Assembly: GCA_963827855.1 (NCBI GenBank)
Contig: CAWHBY010000001.1
Span: 133,799 to 197,798, forward strand
Origin: an uncultured Phycisphaerae bacterium
GTDB taxonomy: Bacteria; Planctomycetota; Phycisphaerae; Sedimentisphaerales; Anaerobacaceae
Direction of reading: 5' to 3'
DNA length: 64,000 bases
The stretch's first letter is position 1; every line of letters begins with the position of its first letter. A program made the position numbers and the translations under genes. Below the pieces are notes generated by a model. That model did not search any database, was not told where the DNA came from, and worked only from the letters and a program-made list of their open reading frames with translations. Shown in pieces: positions 31,914 through 42,552 of this stretch.

Positions 31914-31989
31914 AAGTAAGATGCAGGATGCAGGAAGTAAGATCCGGCGATCGCCTCGTGTCTCTTACCTCTTACCTCTTACCTCTGGT
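31914..31989. repeat. Tandem heptamer arrays flanking a GC palindrome between convergent genes
   Basis: AAGTAAG ATGCAGG ATGCAGG AAGTAAG (31914-31941). GGCGATCGCC palindrome (31946-31955). CTCTTAC x3 plus CTCTGGT (31962-31989). GTAAGA (31937-42) can pair with TCTTAC (31963-68). Confidence 0.85.
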
Positions 31990-33715
31990 CGGCGGATGGC
32001 GTGATCGCTTCCCATTCGATGTTCGATGCCCCGAGCAGCGTGCCTGTGGCGTAGGCCAGGTCCACCAGGGCGATCTGATAGTCGGTCAGGGCCGAGATCT
32101 CGGTGCTCTGGGCGTTGGCCAGGCTGGCCTGGGCATTGAGCACGTCCGTGGAGGTCCGCAGCCCCAGCTCGAACTGCCGTTTCTCGGCTTCATACAGGCG
32201 GCCGGCCAGGACGGTATTCTGCTGTCCCGCCAGTATCCGCTGCCAGTTGGCCTCCAGTCCTGACACCGCGTTGAGGACCTCCTGCTCGATCTGGGCCCTG
32301 CGGCTCTCCCGCGTGGCCAGCCGCTGACACTTCTGGTACACGGCCTGCCGGACGCGGCTCTTGGCAGCCTCATTGCCTATGGGGATCTGGAGTTTCAGTC
32401 CCAGGCGGTTGTCTGAGAAACGATTCTCCCCCAGCATGCTCCAGGAGTCCTCGCGTGAGGCGCCCATGCCGTTGAGATTGTAGTTGTAGTCGAACACGAC
32501 TGAGGGCAGGGACAGGTCTCGCTGGTAGTCGACGTTGAGGCTGTCTTGTGCCAATCGGAGCTCCAGTTCGAGCATCTCCATACGGTTGTGGATGGCAGAA
32601 TCCACCAACTGGTCGGACCTCAGGTCATAGCGAACCGGCGTCGGCTCCGTCATGGGGACCACGGCCGTGGGACTCTGCATACCCAGGGCGGCCTGATTGA
32701 TCTGCCGCTTCAGCGATCTTTGGCGATTCTCGAGATTGTTCTCCGCAACGATGATGGCCTCCAACTGCTGGGCCACGCCGGCCTGCGCCCTGACGACCTC
32801 CACGGGCGCCCGATCGCCCTTGTCGACGCATCGCCGGGCCTGATCCAGTTGCGCCTTGGCTAGGTCCAATTGCTGACGCCGGACATCCAGCTCCTTGCGG
32901 GCAGCCACCAGTCGCCAGTACGACCGGTCCAGCTCCGCAGTCAGCCGGATGACCTCCAGCCGGGTCTGGGCGTCCGTGATCCGCCGGTCCAGGGTCGCGA
33001 CCTGGATGCTATACGTCGCGACTTTGGAGCCCAGCCCGCGGAGCAGTGGCTGGCTGATCGAGAATGTGAGGTCAGAGCCGTAGTACGGATTGAACTGGGT
33101 CTGCAGGGCGTCGGTCCGCGTGCGGCTGTCGGTCGCCCTCATGGACACGGTCCCGCCTGTCTCCAGGGGCTTCTGGACGCCAAGGTCGGTATACAGGGAT
33201 TCCACCTGGGACCCATAGATCTCATCGTAAAACGAGATGGCCGGCGTATCGCTCTTGGAAAGGGTGGTGTTGGCGGAGAAGCTGGCCTCGAACTTGGCCC
33301 GTTCCTGTCTGACGCGTTCGGCCGAGAGCGTGGGGTTGATCAGGGTGGCCTTGAGTTCCAGGTTATTCTGCAGAGCCATGGCCCTGCACTGCTCCAGGGT
33401 CAGCTCCAGCGAGGCCGAGGGAGGGGTGAAAAGCTCGACGATATTGGGCTCAGCGGCCTGCGGGGGCGCCACCTGAAGCCTGAGCGGCTCGATCTGCTTG
33501 AGCGGTCGATCGGCGGCGACCTTAGCCGCAGAGCCGCCGATCCCGAACACCCCGTCACACCCCGCCAGCAGAACCAGTCCGAAGGCCAGGGCCAAGGCCA
33601 AGGCGCATGCCCAGAGGCCGGCGCAATGGTGTCTGCTCCCCACCCTCCTGTCTCCTGTCTCCTGTCTCCTGGGTCCTGAGTTCTGTGTTCTGTGTTCTGT
33701 GTTCAAACTACTCAT
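31979..33715 (-). CDS. TolC/OprM-family outer-membrane efflux lipoprotein
   Basis: Two outer-membrane-efflux-protein repeats (LTLEQCRAMALQNNLELKA.., LDLAKAQLDQARRCVDKGDRAPVEVVRAQ..). Lipobox LVLLAGC. Start is ambiguous: ATG 33715 overlaps the upstream stop, while GTG 33643 (VGSRHHCAGLWACALALALAFGLVLLAGC) gives a normal lipoprotein leader. Confidence 0.8.
   Translation of the reverse strand: MSSLNTEHRTQNSGPRRQETGDRRVGSRHHCAGLWACALALALAFGLVLLAGCDGVFGIGGSAAKVAADRPLKQIEPLRLQVAPPQAAEPNIVELFTPPSASLELTLEQCRAMALQNNLELKATLINPTLSAERVRQERAKFEASFSANTTLSKSDTPAISFYDEIYGSQVESLYTDLGVQKPLETGGTVSMRATDSRTRTDALQTQFNPYYGSDLTFSISQPLLRGLGSKVATYSIQVATLDRRITDAQTRLEVIRLTAELDRSYWRLVAARKELDVRRQQLDLAKAQLDQARRCVDKGDRAPVEVVRAQAGVAQQLEAIIVAENNLENRQRSLKRQINQAALGMQSPTAVVPMTEPTPVRYDLRSDQLVDSAIHNRMEMLELELRLAQDSLNVDYQRDLSLPSVVFDYNYNLNGMGASREDSWSMLGENRFSDNRLGLKLQIPIGNEAAKSRVRQAVYQKCQRLATRESRRAQIEQEVLNAVSGLEANWQRILAGQQNTVLAGRLYEAEKRQFELGLRTSTDVLNAQASLANAQSTEISALTDYQIALVDLAYATGTLLGASNIEWEAITPSADQR
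33645..33707. repeat. Nine in-register tandem heptamers at the permease/TolC junction
   Basis: Plus strand: CTCCTGT x3, CTCCTGG, GTCCTGA, GTTCTGT x3, GTTCAAA. On the coding (minus) strand this reads TTTGAAC, ACAGAAC x3, TCAGGAC, CCAGGAG, ACAGGAG x3. Confidence 0.9.
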
Positions 33716-34976
33716 GTCTGAGGGCCTCAATCGGATCGAGCCGGGCGGCCTTGATGGCCGGGAACATGCCAAAGCAGATGCCTACGGTGCACGAGAACGC
33801 AATTGCCAGAACCGTGACCTGCCACGGGATATAGGCCATGTCCACGAACTTCGCCATGCTGGCGATGGCCTTCGTCAGGAGTTGTCCGAGGCCCAGGCCA
33901 ATCATCCCGCCCACCATGCAGATAACCATGGCCTCGATCAGGAACTGGGTCAGGATCGCGGATCTGCGGGCACCCACGGCCTTGCGGAGTCCGATCTCCC
34001 GGGTCCTTTCGGAGACAGAGACCAGCATGATGTTCATGATGCCGATCCCTCCGACCAGGAGCGAGATGCCCGCGATTCCGCCACCCGCCAGCCTCAGGTA
34101 CAGGGCCACGCGGTTGAATCCCCTCAGCTCGTTCTCCATGGACAGCAGATTGAACGTGTCCGGCTCACCAGGGCTGACGTGACGGGTGCGGCGGAAGAAG
34201 AACCGCAGCTCTGCCAGGGCGTCTTCCGACGCCTCCGAGGTGCGGCTCTCTGCGCGGGCATCGATCCAGGGGTCGCGGTTCAGCTTGAGGCCCGTGTGGA
34301 AGGGAATGAACATCTCGATGTTCTCGCCGTCTCCGCCGCTGAACATGGAGCTGGGCCTGGCCTCCAGGAGTCCCACGATGATGAAGGTATTGTAGCCTAC
34401 GAGGATGGACTGGCCGATGCAGTCCTTGTCCAGCTCCAGCTTGTCCCGCAGCTTGGGATCGATCAGACAGACCTGCCTGGCCTGTATCTCGTCCATTTCC
34501 GAAATCAGGCGGCCCAGCGTCACGGTCTTTCCCTGGATCAGATGGCAGGCCGGCTCCGCGCACGTAACGCCCACCCCCTCCACGGACTTCTCGCGACGGG
34601 TGACGGTCTGCCGGCCCAGCCCGGTCTGCATCCCGAAGCGTGAGACCGAGGGACAATGCGTCAGTAGGTTGTCGAACTGCTCGGGTCGCATCCGGAGATC
34701 CCACCAGCCGGCATTCTTCATGGGACCCGTGTTGGGACGCGTGGGCCAGATGAAGATCAGGTTGGTCCCGAACGTGGACTTGACCTCGGAGAGGATCTTG
34801 GCCTTCATCCCGCTGATCGCCGCTACGACCGCAGTCACGGACGCGACCGCGATGATGATCCCCAACATGGTCAGAAAGGACCGCATCTTGTTGGCCCAGA
34901 TCTGGCCGAGGGCCAGGAAGATGCTCTGGTACAGAAACCGCATGAAGGCCACGATCGACGTCATCACGATCCTCAT
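33708..34976 (-). CDS. macB: MacB-type ABC transporter permease (FtsX-like with a large periplasmic domain)
   Basis: 422 aa. N-terminal TM (ANKMRSFLTMLGIIIAVASVTAV), a periplasmic domain of about 220 aa, then three C-terminal TMs with RTREIGLRKAVGA. The start overlaps the ATPase stop (ATGA). Confidence 0.8.
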   Translation of the reverse strand: MRIVMTSIVAFMRFLYQSIFLALGQIWANKMRSFLTMLGIIIAVASVTAVVAAISGMKAKILSEVKSTFGTNLIFIWPTRPNTGPMKNAGWWDLRMRPEQFDNLLTHCPSVSRFGMQTGLGRQTVTRREKSVEGVGVTCAEPACHLIQGKTVTLGRLISEMDEIQARQVCLIDPKLRDKLELDKDCIGQSILVGYNTFIIVGLLEARPSSMFSGGDGENIEMFIPFHTGLKLNRDPWIDARAESRTSEASEDALAELRFFFRRTRHVSPGEPDTFNLLSMENELRGFNRVALYLRLAGGGIAGISLLVGGIGIMNIMLVSVSERTREIGLRKAVGARRSAILTQFLIEAMVICMVGGMIGLGLGQLLTKAIASMAKFVDMAYIPWQVTVLAIAFSCTVGICFGMFPAIKAARLDPIEALRHE

Positions 34977-42421: not shown

Positions 42422-42460
42422 TGTTATACATGACTATAACACTTGGCCGAAGGCTGTCAA
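42422..42460 (-). promoter_or_regulatory. Promoter of the GntR-ABC operon with an overlapping inverted-repeat operator
   Basis: Minus strand: TTGACA (42460-42455), a 16-nt spacer, TATAGT (42438-42433). The perfect inverted repeat TGTTATA-CATGAC-TATAACA (42422-42441) covers the -10 element. Confidence 0.6.
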
Positions 42461-42490
42461 GGCCTTGGCAAAGAAAGAAGGCCACTGCAG

Positions 42491-42552
42491 GTTTTAAGTT
42501 TTAGGTTTTAGGAGAGAGAGTTTGCCCTGCAGTGACCTGAAACCTAAAACTT
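42491..42552. repeat. Heptamer array forming one arm of a long hairpin
   Basis: GTTTTAA GTTTTAG GTTTTAG GAGAGAG (42491-42518). AAGTTTTAGGTTTTAGG (42496-42512) pairs with CCTGAAACCTAAAACTT (42536-42552): 17 bp with one G-U pair and a 23-nt loop. Confidence 0.85.

Follow-up and report, generated by a model that had tools for sequence, protein, structure and literature searches.

In a 64,000-nt stretch of DNA from an uncultured Phycisphaerae bacterium (Planctomycetota; GenBank assembly GCA_963827855.1, contig CAWHBY010000001.1, positions 133,799 to 197,798; hereafter the window), tandem arrays of 7-nt units occupy the gene junctions of a macA-macB-tolC efflux operon. The operon lies on the minus strand, and open reading frames (ORFs) and Pfam matches identify a HlyD-family adaptor, macA (35806-37230, HlyD_D23), an ABC ATPase (34973-35710, ABC_tran), a MacB/FtsX permease (33708-34976, MacB_PCD and FtsX) and an outer-membrane OEP/TolC gene, tolC (31979 to ~33643, start uncertain, OEP). 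The ATPase and permease genes overlap by 4 nt, and this is the sole operon junction without an array; arrays are present at all other junctions of the operon and at its convergent 3′ end. We located arrays with Tandem Repeats Finder (TRF) on the window and by direct reading of four stretches. The initial annotation of this DNA had reported period-7 arrays at four loci and at every macA-macB-tolC junction other than the 4-nt overlap; TRF and the raw sequence confirm the former, and gene calls the latter. None of these loci is exceptional: they belong to a population of short-period tandem arrays that occupies gene gaps throughout the genome and whose arm families also bracket genes of the PF05635 family.

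Two of the window loci are hairpins. At the 3′ end of tolC, 31914-31989 forms an inverted pair (AAGTAAG.../...CTCTTAC) in which reading and TRF delimit a left arm of AAGTAAG, ATGCAGG, ATGCAGG and AAGTAAG units (31914-31940; TRF reports GATGCAG ×2.3 at 31920-31935, with AAGTAAG units on either side) and a right arm of CTCTTAC ×3.6 (31962-31986), with a GGCGATCGCC palindrome, recognized by reading, as the center or loop region between them (31946-31955). The left arm starts right behind the stop codon of a bPH-domain gene (31149-31907, plus strand), the tolC stop codon (TAA, 31979-31981, minus strand) lies inside the last full CTCTTAC copy, and the two arms pair in the predicted fold of minus-strand RNA. 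Each CTCTTAC unit contains a TAA on the tolC strand, and three copies at a 7-nt period thus place a stop in all three frames, a universal, frame-independent stop behind the gene. The second hairpin (42489-42552, 17 bp) lies between a divergent GntR/ABC-operon promoter and pfk. Its left arm is AGGTTTT ×3.4 (42489-42512, reading and TRF) and its right arm is AAACCTAAAACTT (42536-42552, reading and fold), which makes it one of 45 loci in the genome built as an AGGTTTT array, a loop and an AAAACCT array. GAGAGAG (42513-42519), initially taken for a repeat unit, is actually part of its loop. The segments CACTGCAGG (42483-42491) and CCTGCAGTG (42525-42533) form an alternative stem around the left heptamer arm, which is the preferred fold of the minus-strand RNA, and 30 nt away, on the minus strand, is a strong sigma-70-like promoter (TTGACA-16-TATAGT, 42460 to 42433).

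The remaining loci are intercistronic and, like the hairpins, were delimited by reading and TRF. From the permease stop codon (TAG, 33708-33710) to the start of tolC runs a single unpaired composite array (33645-33707, minus strand), in which CTCCTGT ×3.9 (33645-33671) passes in register, via CTCCTGG and GTCCTGA-like units, into CTGTGTT ×4.1 (33676-33704); on the coding strand it reads (AACACAG)×4, transitional units and (ACAGGAG)×4. The same order, CAGAACA and then CAGGAGA, recurs at at least three other loci of the genome. Adjoining this array is a period-6 array, AAGGCC ×3.8 (33582-33604), which is in-frame and coding and belongs to the tolC signal peptide (ALALALA). The macA/ATPase junction holds two minus-strand arrays, AGCTCAT ×3.7 (35772-35797) just downstream of the macA stop codon (35806), and a degenerate ATTGGTT ×6 array (35709-35750, 71% matches; AACCAAT on the coding strand) that extends into the ATG of the ATPase gene (35710). 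All six window units fall in recurrent families of the genome, among them AGCTCAT/AGCTATG with 17 arrays. In the rest of the window we found only sub-threshold period-7 runs at 16208-16224 (×2.4) and 40781-40799 (×2.5); the former coincides with the GCGGGAA run that the initial annotation had noticed by eye. An Rfam scan of the window returned one tRNA and nothing else.

Genome-wide, TRF returned 981 period-7 rows for the 6.18-Mb assembly (62% G+C, six contigs), 737 of them with at least 3 copies, compared with 134, 200, and 67 such arrays at periods 6, 8, and 9, respectively. Exact tandems of at least 3 units number 114 at period 7 and 8, 19, 25, and 2 at periods 5, 6, 8, and 9, while three second-order Markov simulations of intergenic DNA yielded none at any period of 6 or more. 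Genome-wide gene coordinates came from a crude codon-usage caller (4053 genes, 83% coding); because it takes the longest ORF, it inflates the number of arrays scored as "genic" near 5′ ends. By these coordinates 572/737 period-7 arrays (78%) are intergenic, although only ~17% of the genome is noncoding, and most of the others reach a gene end. At periods 6, 9, and 12, most arrays lie deep within genes. Array density per kb of intergenic DNA is 0.75 in convergent, 0.62 in co-directional, and 0.25 in divergent gaps, and a quarter of the arrays lie no more than 6-7 nt from a neighboring stop or start codon. The period-7 excess and intergenic enrichment that the initial annotation had proposed to look for are thus both present, and its "local repeat family" is a true family, but a genome-wide one: the 737 arrays merge into ~535 loci, and heptamers and octamers together mark 14% of gene junctions. 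With a mean of 0.93 heptamer loci per 10.6 kb, and at least 4 loci in 4% of windows of that size, the operon region is only mildly enriched.

The 737 arrays comprise 148 canonical units, the largest families being AAAACCT (79 arrays), ACAGGAG (76), AACTCAG (52), and AAGAAGT (33). Relative to transcription, single arrays show a weak bias toward the A-rich strand in sense (152:114, P = 0.02) and hairpins show no strand bias (92:89); ACAGGAG arrays in co-directional gaps are antisense in 23 cases and sense in 20, and no replication-strand bias of arrays was found genome-wide. About 200 intergenic octamer arrays form a separate set that does not overlap the heptamer arrays, with GAAACGGC/GAATCGGC/GAATGGGC and AAGGTGAG types (for example at C2:2366183-2366744 and C1:1068755-1069300; C1 and C2 are contigs of the assembly).

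Many of the arrays are paired, with one polarity within each unit family. A reverse-complement match of at least 12/14 lies within 150 nt of 287/737 arrays (39%), compared with 24/737 (3%) in two controls. Among 123 TRF-detected hairpin pairs, no unit family has mixed polarity: AGGTTTT...AAAACCT is found in 24/24 cases, ACAGGAG...CTCCTGT in 21/21, and the AAGAAGT family keeps one polarity in 7/7, followed by families with 5/5, 5/5, 5/5, and 4/4. Because a hairpin and its reverse complement read alike, this fixed polarity is a real property of the element; independent inverted duplications would yield both polarities, 50:50. Both window hairpins share the polarity of their unit families, the one at the tolC 3′ end (A-rich...T-rich) having that of the 7/7 AAGAAGT-family hairpins. 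The loops of the 45 AAAACCT hairpins are variable (3-92 nt), and a partial inner-stem motif, AGGYRACTGC/GCAGTYACCT, recurs among them.

The same kinds of arms enclose PF05635 genes. PF05635 is an Avd-like four-helix-bundle family, named "23S rRNA IVS protein" after rRNA intervening sequences (IVS), and the genome contains eight matches, six of them strong (67-125 bits, re-checked against Pfam) and two weak. All six strong genes are flanked by inverted arrays within ~20-130 nt, an arrangement found at only 13/4053 genes overall (0.3%); the two weak matches are array-free and fall within long ORFs. Heptamer arm pairs at these genes are CAGAAGC/TTCTGGC, ATCAAAG/TTTGATC, GCTAATN/AGCGGTT, and one AGCC-type pair; two cassettes have the octamer arm pairs CGAATCGG/TCGCCGTT and AGAAGATA/CCTTCTCC, and the period-8 arm families at PF05635 genes are CGAATCGG and AGAAGGTA. 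Cassette polarity equals that of gene-less hairpins in the same unit families. One cassette, with ATCAAAG/TTTGATC arms, holds a PF05635 pseudogene with one in-frame TGA (C2:2982278-2982713) and separates the two subunit genes of an aconitase-family dehydratase in a leu-type operon, Aconitase (large) and Aconitase_C (small), an intercistronic position of the same kind as that of the window arrays. Elsewhere, 6 kb around PIN-domain and PF05635 genes (C2:250000-256300) are dense in GCTAAT/AGCCGTT-type heptamer arrays. We considered other cargo and rejected it: of a CMD-family gene and a PIN gene between same-family arrays, the CMD gene simply has a complete hairpin on either side, and where matching arrays lie far apart they mostly enclose ordinary genes.

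This association extends to other genomes of the order. Of 20 PF05635 genes from 11 of them, ~11 are flanked on both sides by clear inverted 7-8-nt arrays, and ~8 others by an array on a single side. Close PF05635 proteins have similar arms across genera, with identities of 76% (a syntenic gene in the sister species, G002), 62-64% (G005, CCAGAAT arms), and 65% (G018/G008), and the product of the pseudogene is 69% identical to that of a G004 gene with TTTGATA arms. We found no published report of a link between PF05635 and repeats in the part of the literature on the family that was searched. Across 12 related genomes, six of them sampled for this comparison, array density is correlated with PF05635 genes (Spearman's rho = 0.69, P = 0.012), a relation that was tested after being predicted. 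The PF05635-free genomes G009 and G019 have 0 and 12 array loci per Mb, and the PF05635-rich genomes G007 (15 genes), G016 (12), G005 (9), and G025 (8) have 185, 80, 72, and 50, respectively. The control transposases rve and DDE_Tnp_1 show no significant correlation with array density (rho = 0.35 and 0.30).

The arrays are patchily distributed among 30 relatives searched (2.1-4.4 Mb), although fragmentation of metagenome-assembled genomes probably lowers array counts in several of them; the genome studied here is ~1.4-3 times their size. Two of them are congeners, G001 and the sister species G002. An AAAACCT triple pattern has 106 matches here, 25 in G002, and none in G001 and 28 further genomes of the family or order, and a TTCTGNN triple pattern has 221 matches in G002 versus 7 for the control. 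TRF on sampled DNA gave densities of period-7 arrays (at least 3 copies) of 119 per Mb here, 42 in G002, and 12.5 in G003, and found none in samples of G001 (192 kb) and G004 (200 kb). The initial annotation had allowed that the repeats might be absent from the rest of the genome and from relatives, which the genome-wide scan, G002, and other genomes contradict. G001 (2.9 Mb, 55% G+C) has no arrays, no PF05635, and no Y1 (HUH) transposase genes. In 79 kb of the family-level relative G012 there are 8 arrays, of which seven share one locus (L087:5363-6033, G012:C7), where 670 nt hold seven different AT-rich heptamer arrays, one of 15 copies.

Comparison with the congeners shows both gain and persistence. 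In the orthologous operons of G001 and G002 the macA and ATPase genes directly abut or overlap, and because these junctions are array-free, the ~95-nt array spacer between macA and the ATPase gene is a lineage gain here. Every G002 array site whose flanks are syntenic in the present genome (9/9) has an array of period 7 or 8 here as well, compared with 14% of junctions overall (P ~ 3e-8). Such syntenic sites often differ in unit family: at two of them, where G002 has an AAAACCT hairpin, the one found here is built of AAAGATC units.

These observations make it reasonably probable that gene-less hairpins and single arrays are nonautonomous relatives of PF05635 cassettes, which settle at gene junctions, persist there, and then change their units. 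Such elements would derive from PF05635 cassettes and would settle chiefly behind stop codons and between cistrons; they would stay at their sites across species-level divergence, and settled arrays would then grow, shrink, and change unit sequence through slippage and replacement. The limited number of families, fixed polarity, PF05635 arms, persistence at junctions, and lineage gain argue for a population of structured elements over independent slippage, and unit gradients together with copy-number and unit differences show that slippage acts on the arrays afterward. Several observations weigh against such a kinship. About 60% of arrays, including both intercistronic ones of the window, lack an inverted partner; unpaired arrays may be half-elements or independent expansions. 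No PF05635 remnant is recognizable in the loops of gene-less hairpins, which are mostly unrelated to each other. In-register gradients of unit variants within arrays are the expectation of simple slippage. We found no target-site duplications or defined termini of arrays, and comparison of the macA/ATPase junction with that of G002 revealed no target-site duplication. G004 has 6 PF05635 genes, yet no dispersed arrays in its 200-kb sample. Finally, the density of Y1 (HUH) genes is more strongly correlated with array density than is PF05635 (rho = 0.82, P = 0.001), and both correlations come from 12 related genomes, mostly fragmented metagenome-assembled ones, with statistics that ignore phylogeny.

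One alternative is that the arrays are a pure mutational by-product, generated by in situ replication slippage with an intrinsic preference for 7 nt (or 8 nt), as in Mrazek's polymerase-footprint idea in the form relayed by later papers, and tolerated outside coding sequence without element identity, mobility, or function. The 148 different units, the in-register gradients, the differences in copy number and unit between species at one site, the almost random orientation of single arrays and hairpins, the lack of replication-strand bias, and the way arrays fill gaps up to stop and start codons are all as slippage would have them, and a heptamer excess has been published for many phyla (PMC4679880, PMC4692102). 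We nevertheless regard this explanation as unlikely, as it does not accommodate a polarity without one mixed family among 123 pairs, where random inverted duplication would give 50:50, nor the dominance of few families, which are common to the sister species and have near-identical units in Geobacter (PMC2700814). The same arm families also bracket 6/6 strong PF05635 genes, and the congener G001, whose replication is presumably alike, has no arrays in 192 kb. A further alternative, that arrays are selected cis-regulatory sites, whether bound by a protein with one unit per subunit (a cold-shock/S1-type RNA binder, or IHF/HU-like), serving as translational leaders, or acting as phase-variable spacers, draws on the retention of arrays at orthologous junctions (9/9) and on the operon itself, where (ACAGGAG)n provides a Shine-Dalgarno-like AGGAG 8 nt upstream of the likely GTG start of tolC and (AACCAAT)n is a predicted unstructured CA-rich leader that ends in the ATPase ATG; related proposals have been published for Geobacter (PMC2700814) and Beggiatoaceae (PMC4679880). 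However, ACAGGAG is antisense as often as sense, the overall sense bias is weak, unit sequence is not kept at orthologous sites, and relatives run the same operon with directly overlapping genes. Arrays sit behind stops or between cistrons and are depleted in divergent (promoter) regions, whereas phase-variable repeats lie inside a reading frame or between promoter elements, where changes in unit number switch expression, and vary in copy number within populations. The location of the arrays outside coding sequence and their nearly random orientation with respect to transcription lend no support to the phase variation initially suggested. Selection for a regulatory site thus seems to us quite improbable.

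Another reading has the hairpins mobilized by transposases. In a system like the repetitive extragenic palindromes (REPs) or REPINs, hairpins would be moved in trans on single-stranded DNA by Y1 (HUH) transposases resembling the REP-associated tyrosine transposases (RAYTs), with PF05635 genes as passengers or preferred neighbors. The genome contains 8-9 Y1_Tnp genes, whose best NCBIfam match is "REP-associated tyrosine transposase" (65-75 bits, all under the cut-off of 80 bits; IS200 scores 21-25 bits). Their cross-genome correlation is the best of all tested, with none for rve and DDE_Tnp_1, and G004, which lacks Y1 genes, shows no dispersed arrays in its sample even though it has PF05635 genes. 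Against this, 7/9 Y1 genes have no 7/8-nt array within 600 nt, and at 6/8 Y1 loci examined the gene is spanned by a best inverted repeat of another kind, with a GGGGTCAG...CTGACCCC core common to five. The adjacency of RAYT genes and REPs is therefore matched by this other small repeat, not by the heptamer arrays, and exact gene-less GGGGTCAG hairpins are limited to two (C1:1254501 and C2:3367075). The Y1 loci (L201-L208) include C2:1050166-1051203, C2:2769505-2770479, C2:2732145-2733119, and C4:406860-407534, and two copies are nearly identical. The Y1 genes and the GGGGTCAG repeat look like a small, separate REP/RAYT-like system; because most of the Y1 genes examined have their own non-heptamer inverted repeat, their link with the arrays is statistical only, whereas that of PF05635 is physical. 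We give mobilization of the arrays by Y1 transposases little credence.

If the arrays are indeed kin of PF05635 cassettes, a more specific and more tentative proposal is that array-armed hairpins are the gene-less, nonautonomous form of a widespread PF05635 cassette, and that an undescribed mechanism copies the cassette, or its arms alone, into gene junctions. Copying might involve a ring-forming PF05635 protein, each subunit of which would read one unit, or the action of Y1/HUH enzymes on the hairpin DNA. If true, a single explanation would cover the intergenic heptamer excess of cyanobacteria, Xanthomonas, Geobacter, and others, which has gone unexplained for decades, as well as near-identical units in unrelated phyla and ORF-bearing rRNA intervening sequences.

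For the efflux operon itself, structural effects would be by-products of array settlement. The tolC 3′-end hairpin has a predicted fold of -33.2 kcal/mol (31900-31995, minus strand, z = -3.1; weaker on the opposite strand), and the pfk leader hairpin one of -25.0 kcal/mol (42480-42560, plus strand, z = -2.6). For the two intercistronic arrays no structure is predicted (z = -0.35 for 33645-33707 and -0.42 for the macA/ATPase array). The role in mRNA structure proposed initially is thus plausible for the two hairpins and finds no counterpart in the intercistronic arrays. By-products of settlement would then be a strong stem-loop at the tolC 3′ end, another in the pfk leader, and two unstructured spacers of 63 nt and ~95 nt that part cistrons directly coupled in relatives. 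Locally, the operon has likely gained a stable stem-loop where tolC ends and lost direct translational coupling at two of its junctions. RNase III-type processing or 3′-end stabilization is suggested only by the parallel with intervening sequences of rRNA and with REP elements. We rejected the array hairpins as intrinsic terminators: none of the 5 terminator-like sites in 31000-43500, where 6.0 such sites are expected by chance, coincides with an array, and the hairpins have A/T-rich stems and no T tail, unlike the G+C-rich stem and T run of terminators.

Heptamers at operon junctions extend a known but unexplained class of repeats to Planctomycetota, which alone is of modest interest. Fixed polarity, conservation at junctions with turnover of units, and shared arms around intact PF05635 genes provide a handle on the origin of such repeats. 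If the PF05635 link is causal, the question of why 7-nt repeats dominate the intergenic DNA of bacteria could be put to the test, and a function would emerge for PF05635 proteins outside diversity-generating retroelements. In annotation, arrays of this kind split translationally coupled genes and add strong stem-loops to operons, and they should be treated as features rather than noise.

The short tandemly repeated repetitive (STRR) sequences to which the arrays were first likened occur in heterocystous cyanobacteria, with units CCCCA(G/A)T (STRR1), TT(G/T)GTCA (STRR2), and CAACAGT (STRR3), and were reportedly described in Calothrix and Anabaena by Mazel et al. in 1990. Like STRRs, the present arrays have period 7, are tandem and intergenic, occur in ~100 or more dispersed copies, and fall into several unit families. 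They differ in belonging to another phylum (Planctomycetota/Phycisphaerae) and in their units: none of the published units STRR1-3, TAACTGA, GGGAATC, and GGGGATT was found as an array in this genome, and an STRR identity by unit is accordingly dismissed. A cyanobacterial origin was likewise rejected from the HIP1 signature, with GCGATCGC found 2 times in the window versus 2.4 expected, and the GGCGATCGCC palindrome of the tolC hairpin is accordingly no HIP1-type genome signature. REP/BIME elements and REPINs of E. coli and Pseudomonas are extragenic imperfect palindromes of unique sequence, present in hundreds of copies and mobilized by RAYTs. The genome studied here may be compared with these in its hundreds of short extragenic palindromes, which favor gene 3′ ends and intercistronic gaps, and in its RAYT-like genes, which score below the NCBIfam cut-off and are linked to the arrays by correlation; unlike REPs, its elements are tandem arrays, and most of the Y1 genes examined are flanked by an inverted repeat other than a heptamer array.

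We found no published report of heptamer repeats in Planctomycetes or Phycisphaerae. The initial annotation knew of none outside cyanobacteria, but such repeats have been published in Xanthomonas, Beggiatoaceae, Thiocystis, Bacteroidetes, and Geobacter (PMC4692102, PMC4679880, PMC2700814). Three tandem heptanucleotides have been reported in Calothrix PCC 7601, and Nostoc has intergenic GGGGA(C/T)T heptamer arrays (PMC4692102). Xanthomonas genomes each contain ~180-185 intergenic arrays of heterogeneous GGGAATC units, typically ~4 units long, some of them inverted pairs with stem-loop potential; most occupy the same gene gap in two species, while length and sequence vary widely (Rehm et al. 2015, PMC4692102). 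Array size, inverted pairs, and sites kept with turnover of units are also seen here. In contrast to the single G-rich, G-quadruplex-prone family of Xanthomonas or Nostoc, there are many families here and none of the G-quadruplex type, and fixed polarity and a PF05635 link, seen here, are not reported for those repeats. A marine Beggiatoaceae genome contains 169 TAACTGA sets, often directly upstream of start codons, with a patchy distribution that also includes Thiocystis, some Cyanobacteria, and Bacteroidetes (MacGregor 2015, PMC4679880); that repeat has essentially a single unit, a preferred "forward" orientation, and almost no inverted pairs, whereas many units, a weak bias, and many hairpins are found here.

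Units close to those found here occur in Geobacter metallireducens, where sites of classes 1-3, taken as putative binding sites of a global regulator, are opposite-strand pairs of 3-5 tandem 7- or 8-nt units at variable distance, with 8-24 pairs in each class, interpreted as IHF/HU-type sites and described without gene cargo (Aklujkar et al. 2009, PMC2700814). Judged by the text of that paper rather than by alignment, the consensuses given there, MTYCTGA and TCTCCGTS, almost coincide with two families found here, CTTCTGA/ATTCTGA and TCTCCGTT. A heptamer excess in Burkholderia, Actinobacteria, and many other bacteria is attributed to Mrazek (2007) in the accounts given by PMC4679880 and PMC4692102. 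The present arrays have the two features of heptameric intergenic repeats, an excess of period 7 and a preference for intergenic DNA, with multiples of 3 inside genes. The name of PF05635 itself comes from the ORF-bearing 23S rRNA IVS of Leptospira and Coxiella (PMC10053308). An IVS is inserted in a helix of 23S rRNA and excised by RNase III. An IVS in the organism's own 23S rRNA was considered and rejected: the gene, of 2913 nt, matches model positions 1-2925 in one piece, with no insertion. To our knowledge, heptamer-array arms are not part of the published IVS description. As in an IVS, the PF05635 gene is enclosed here by inverted flanks able to form a long stem (6/6 strong genes); unlike IVSs, the cassettes lie between protein-coding genes and not in rRNA.

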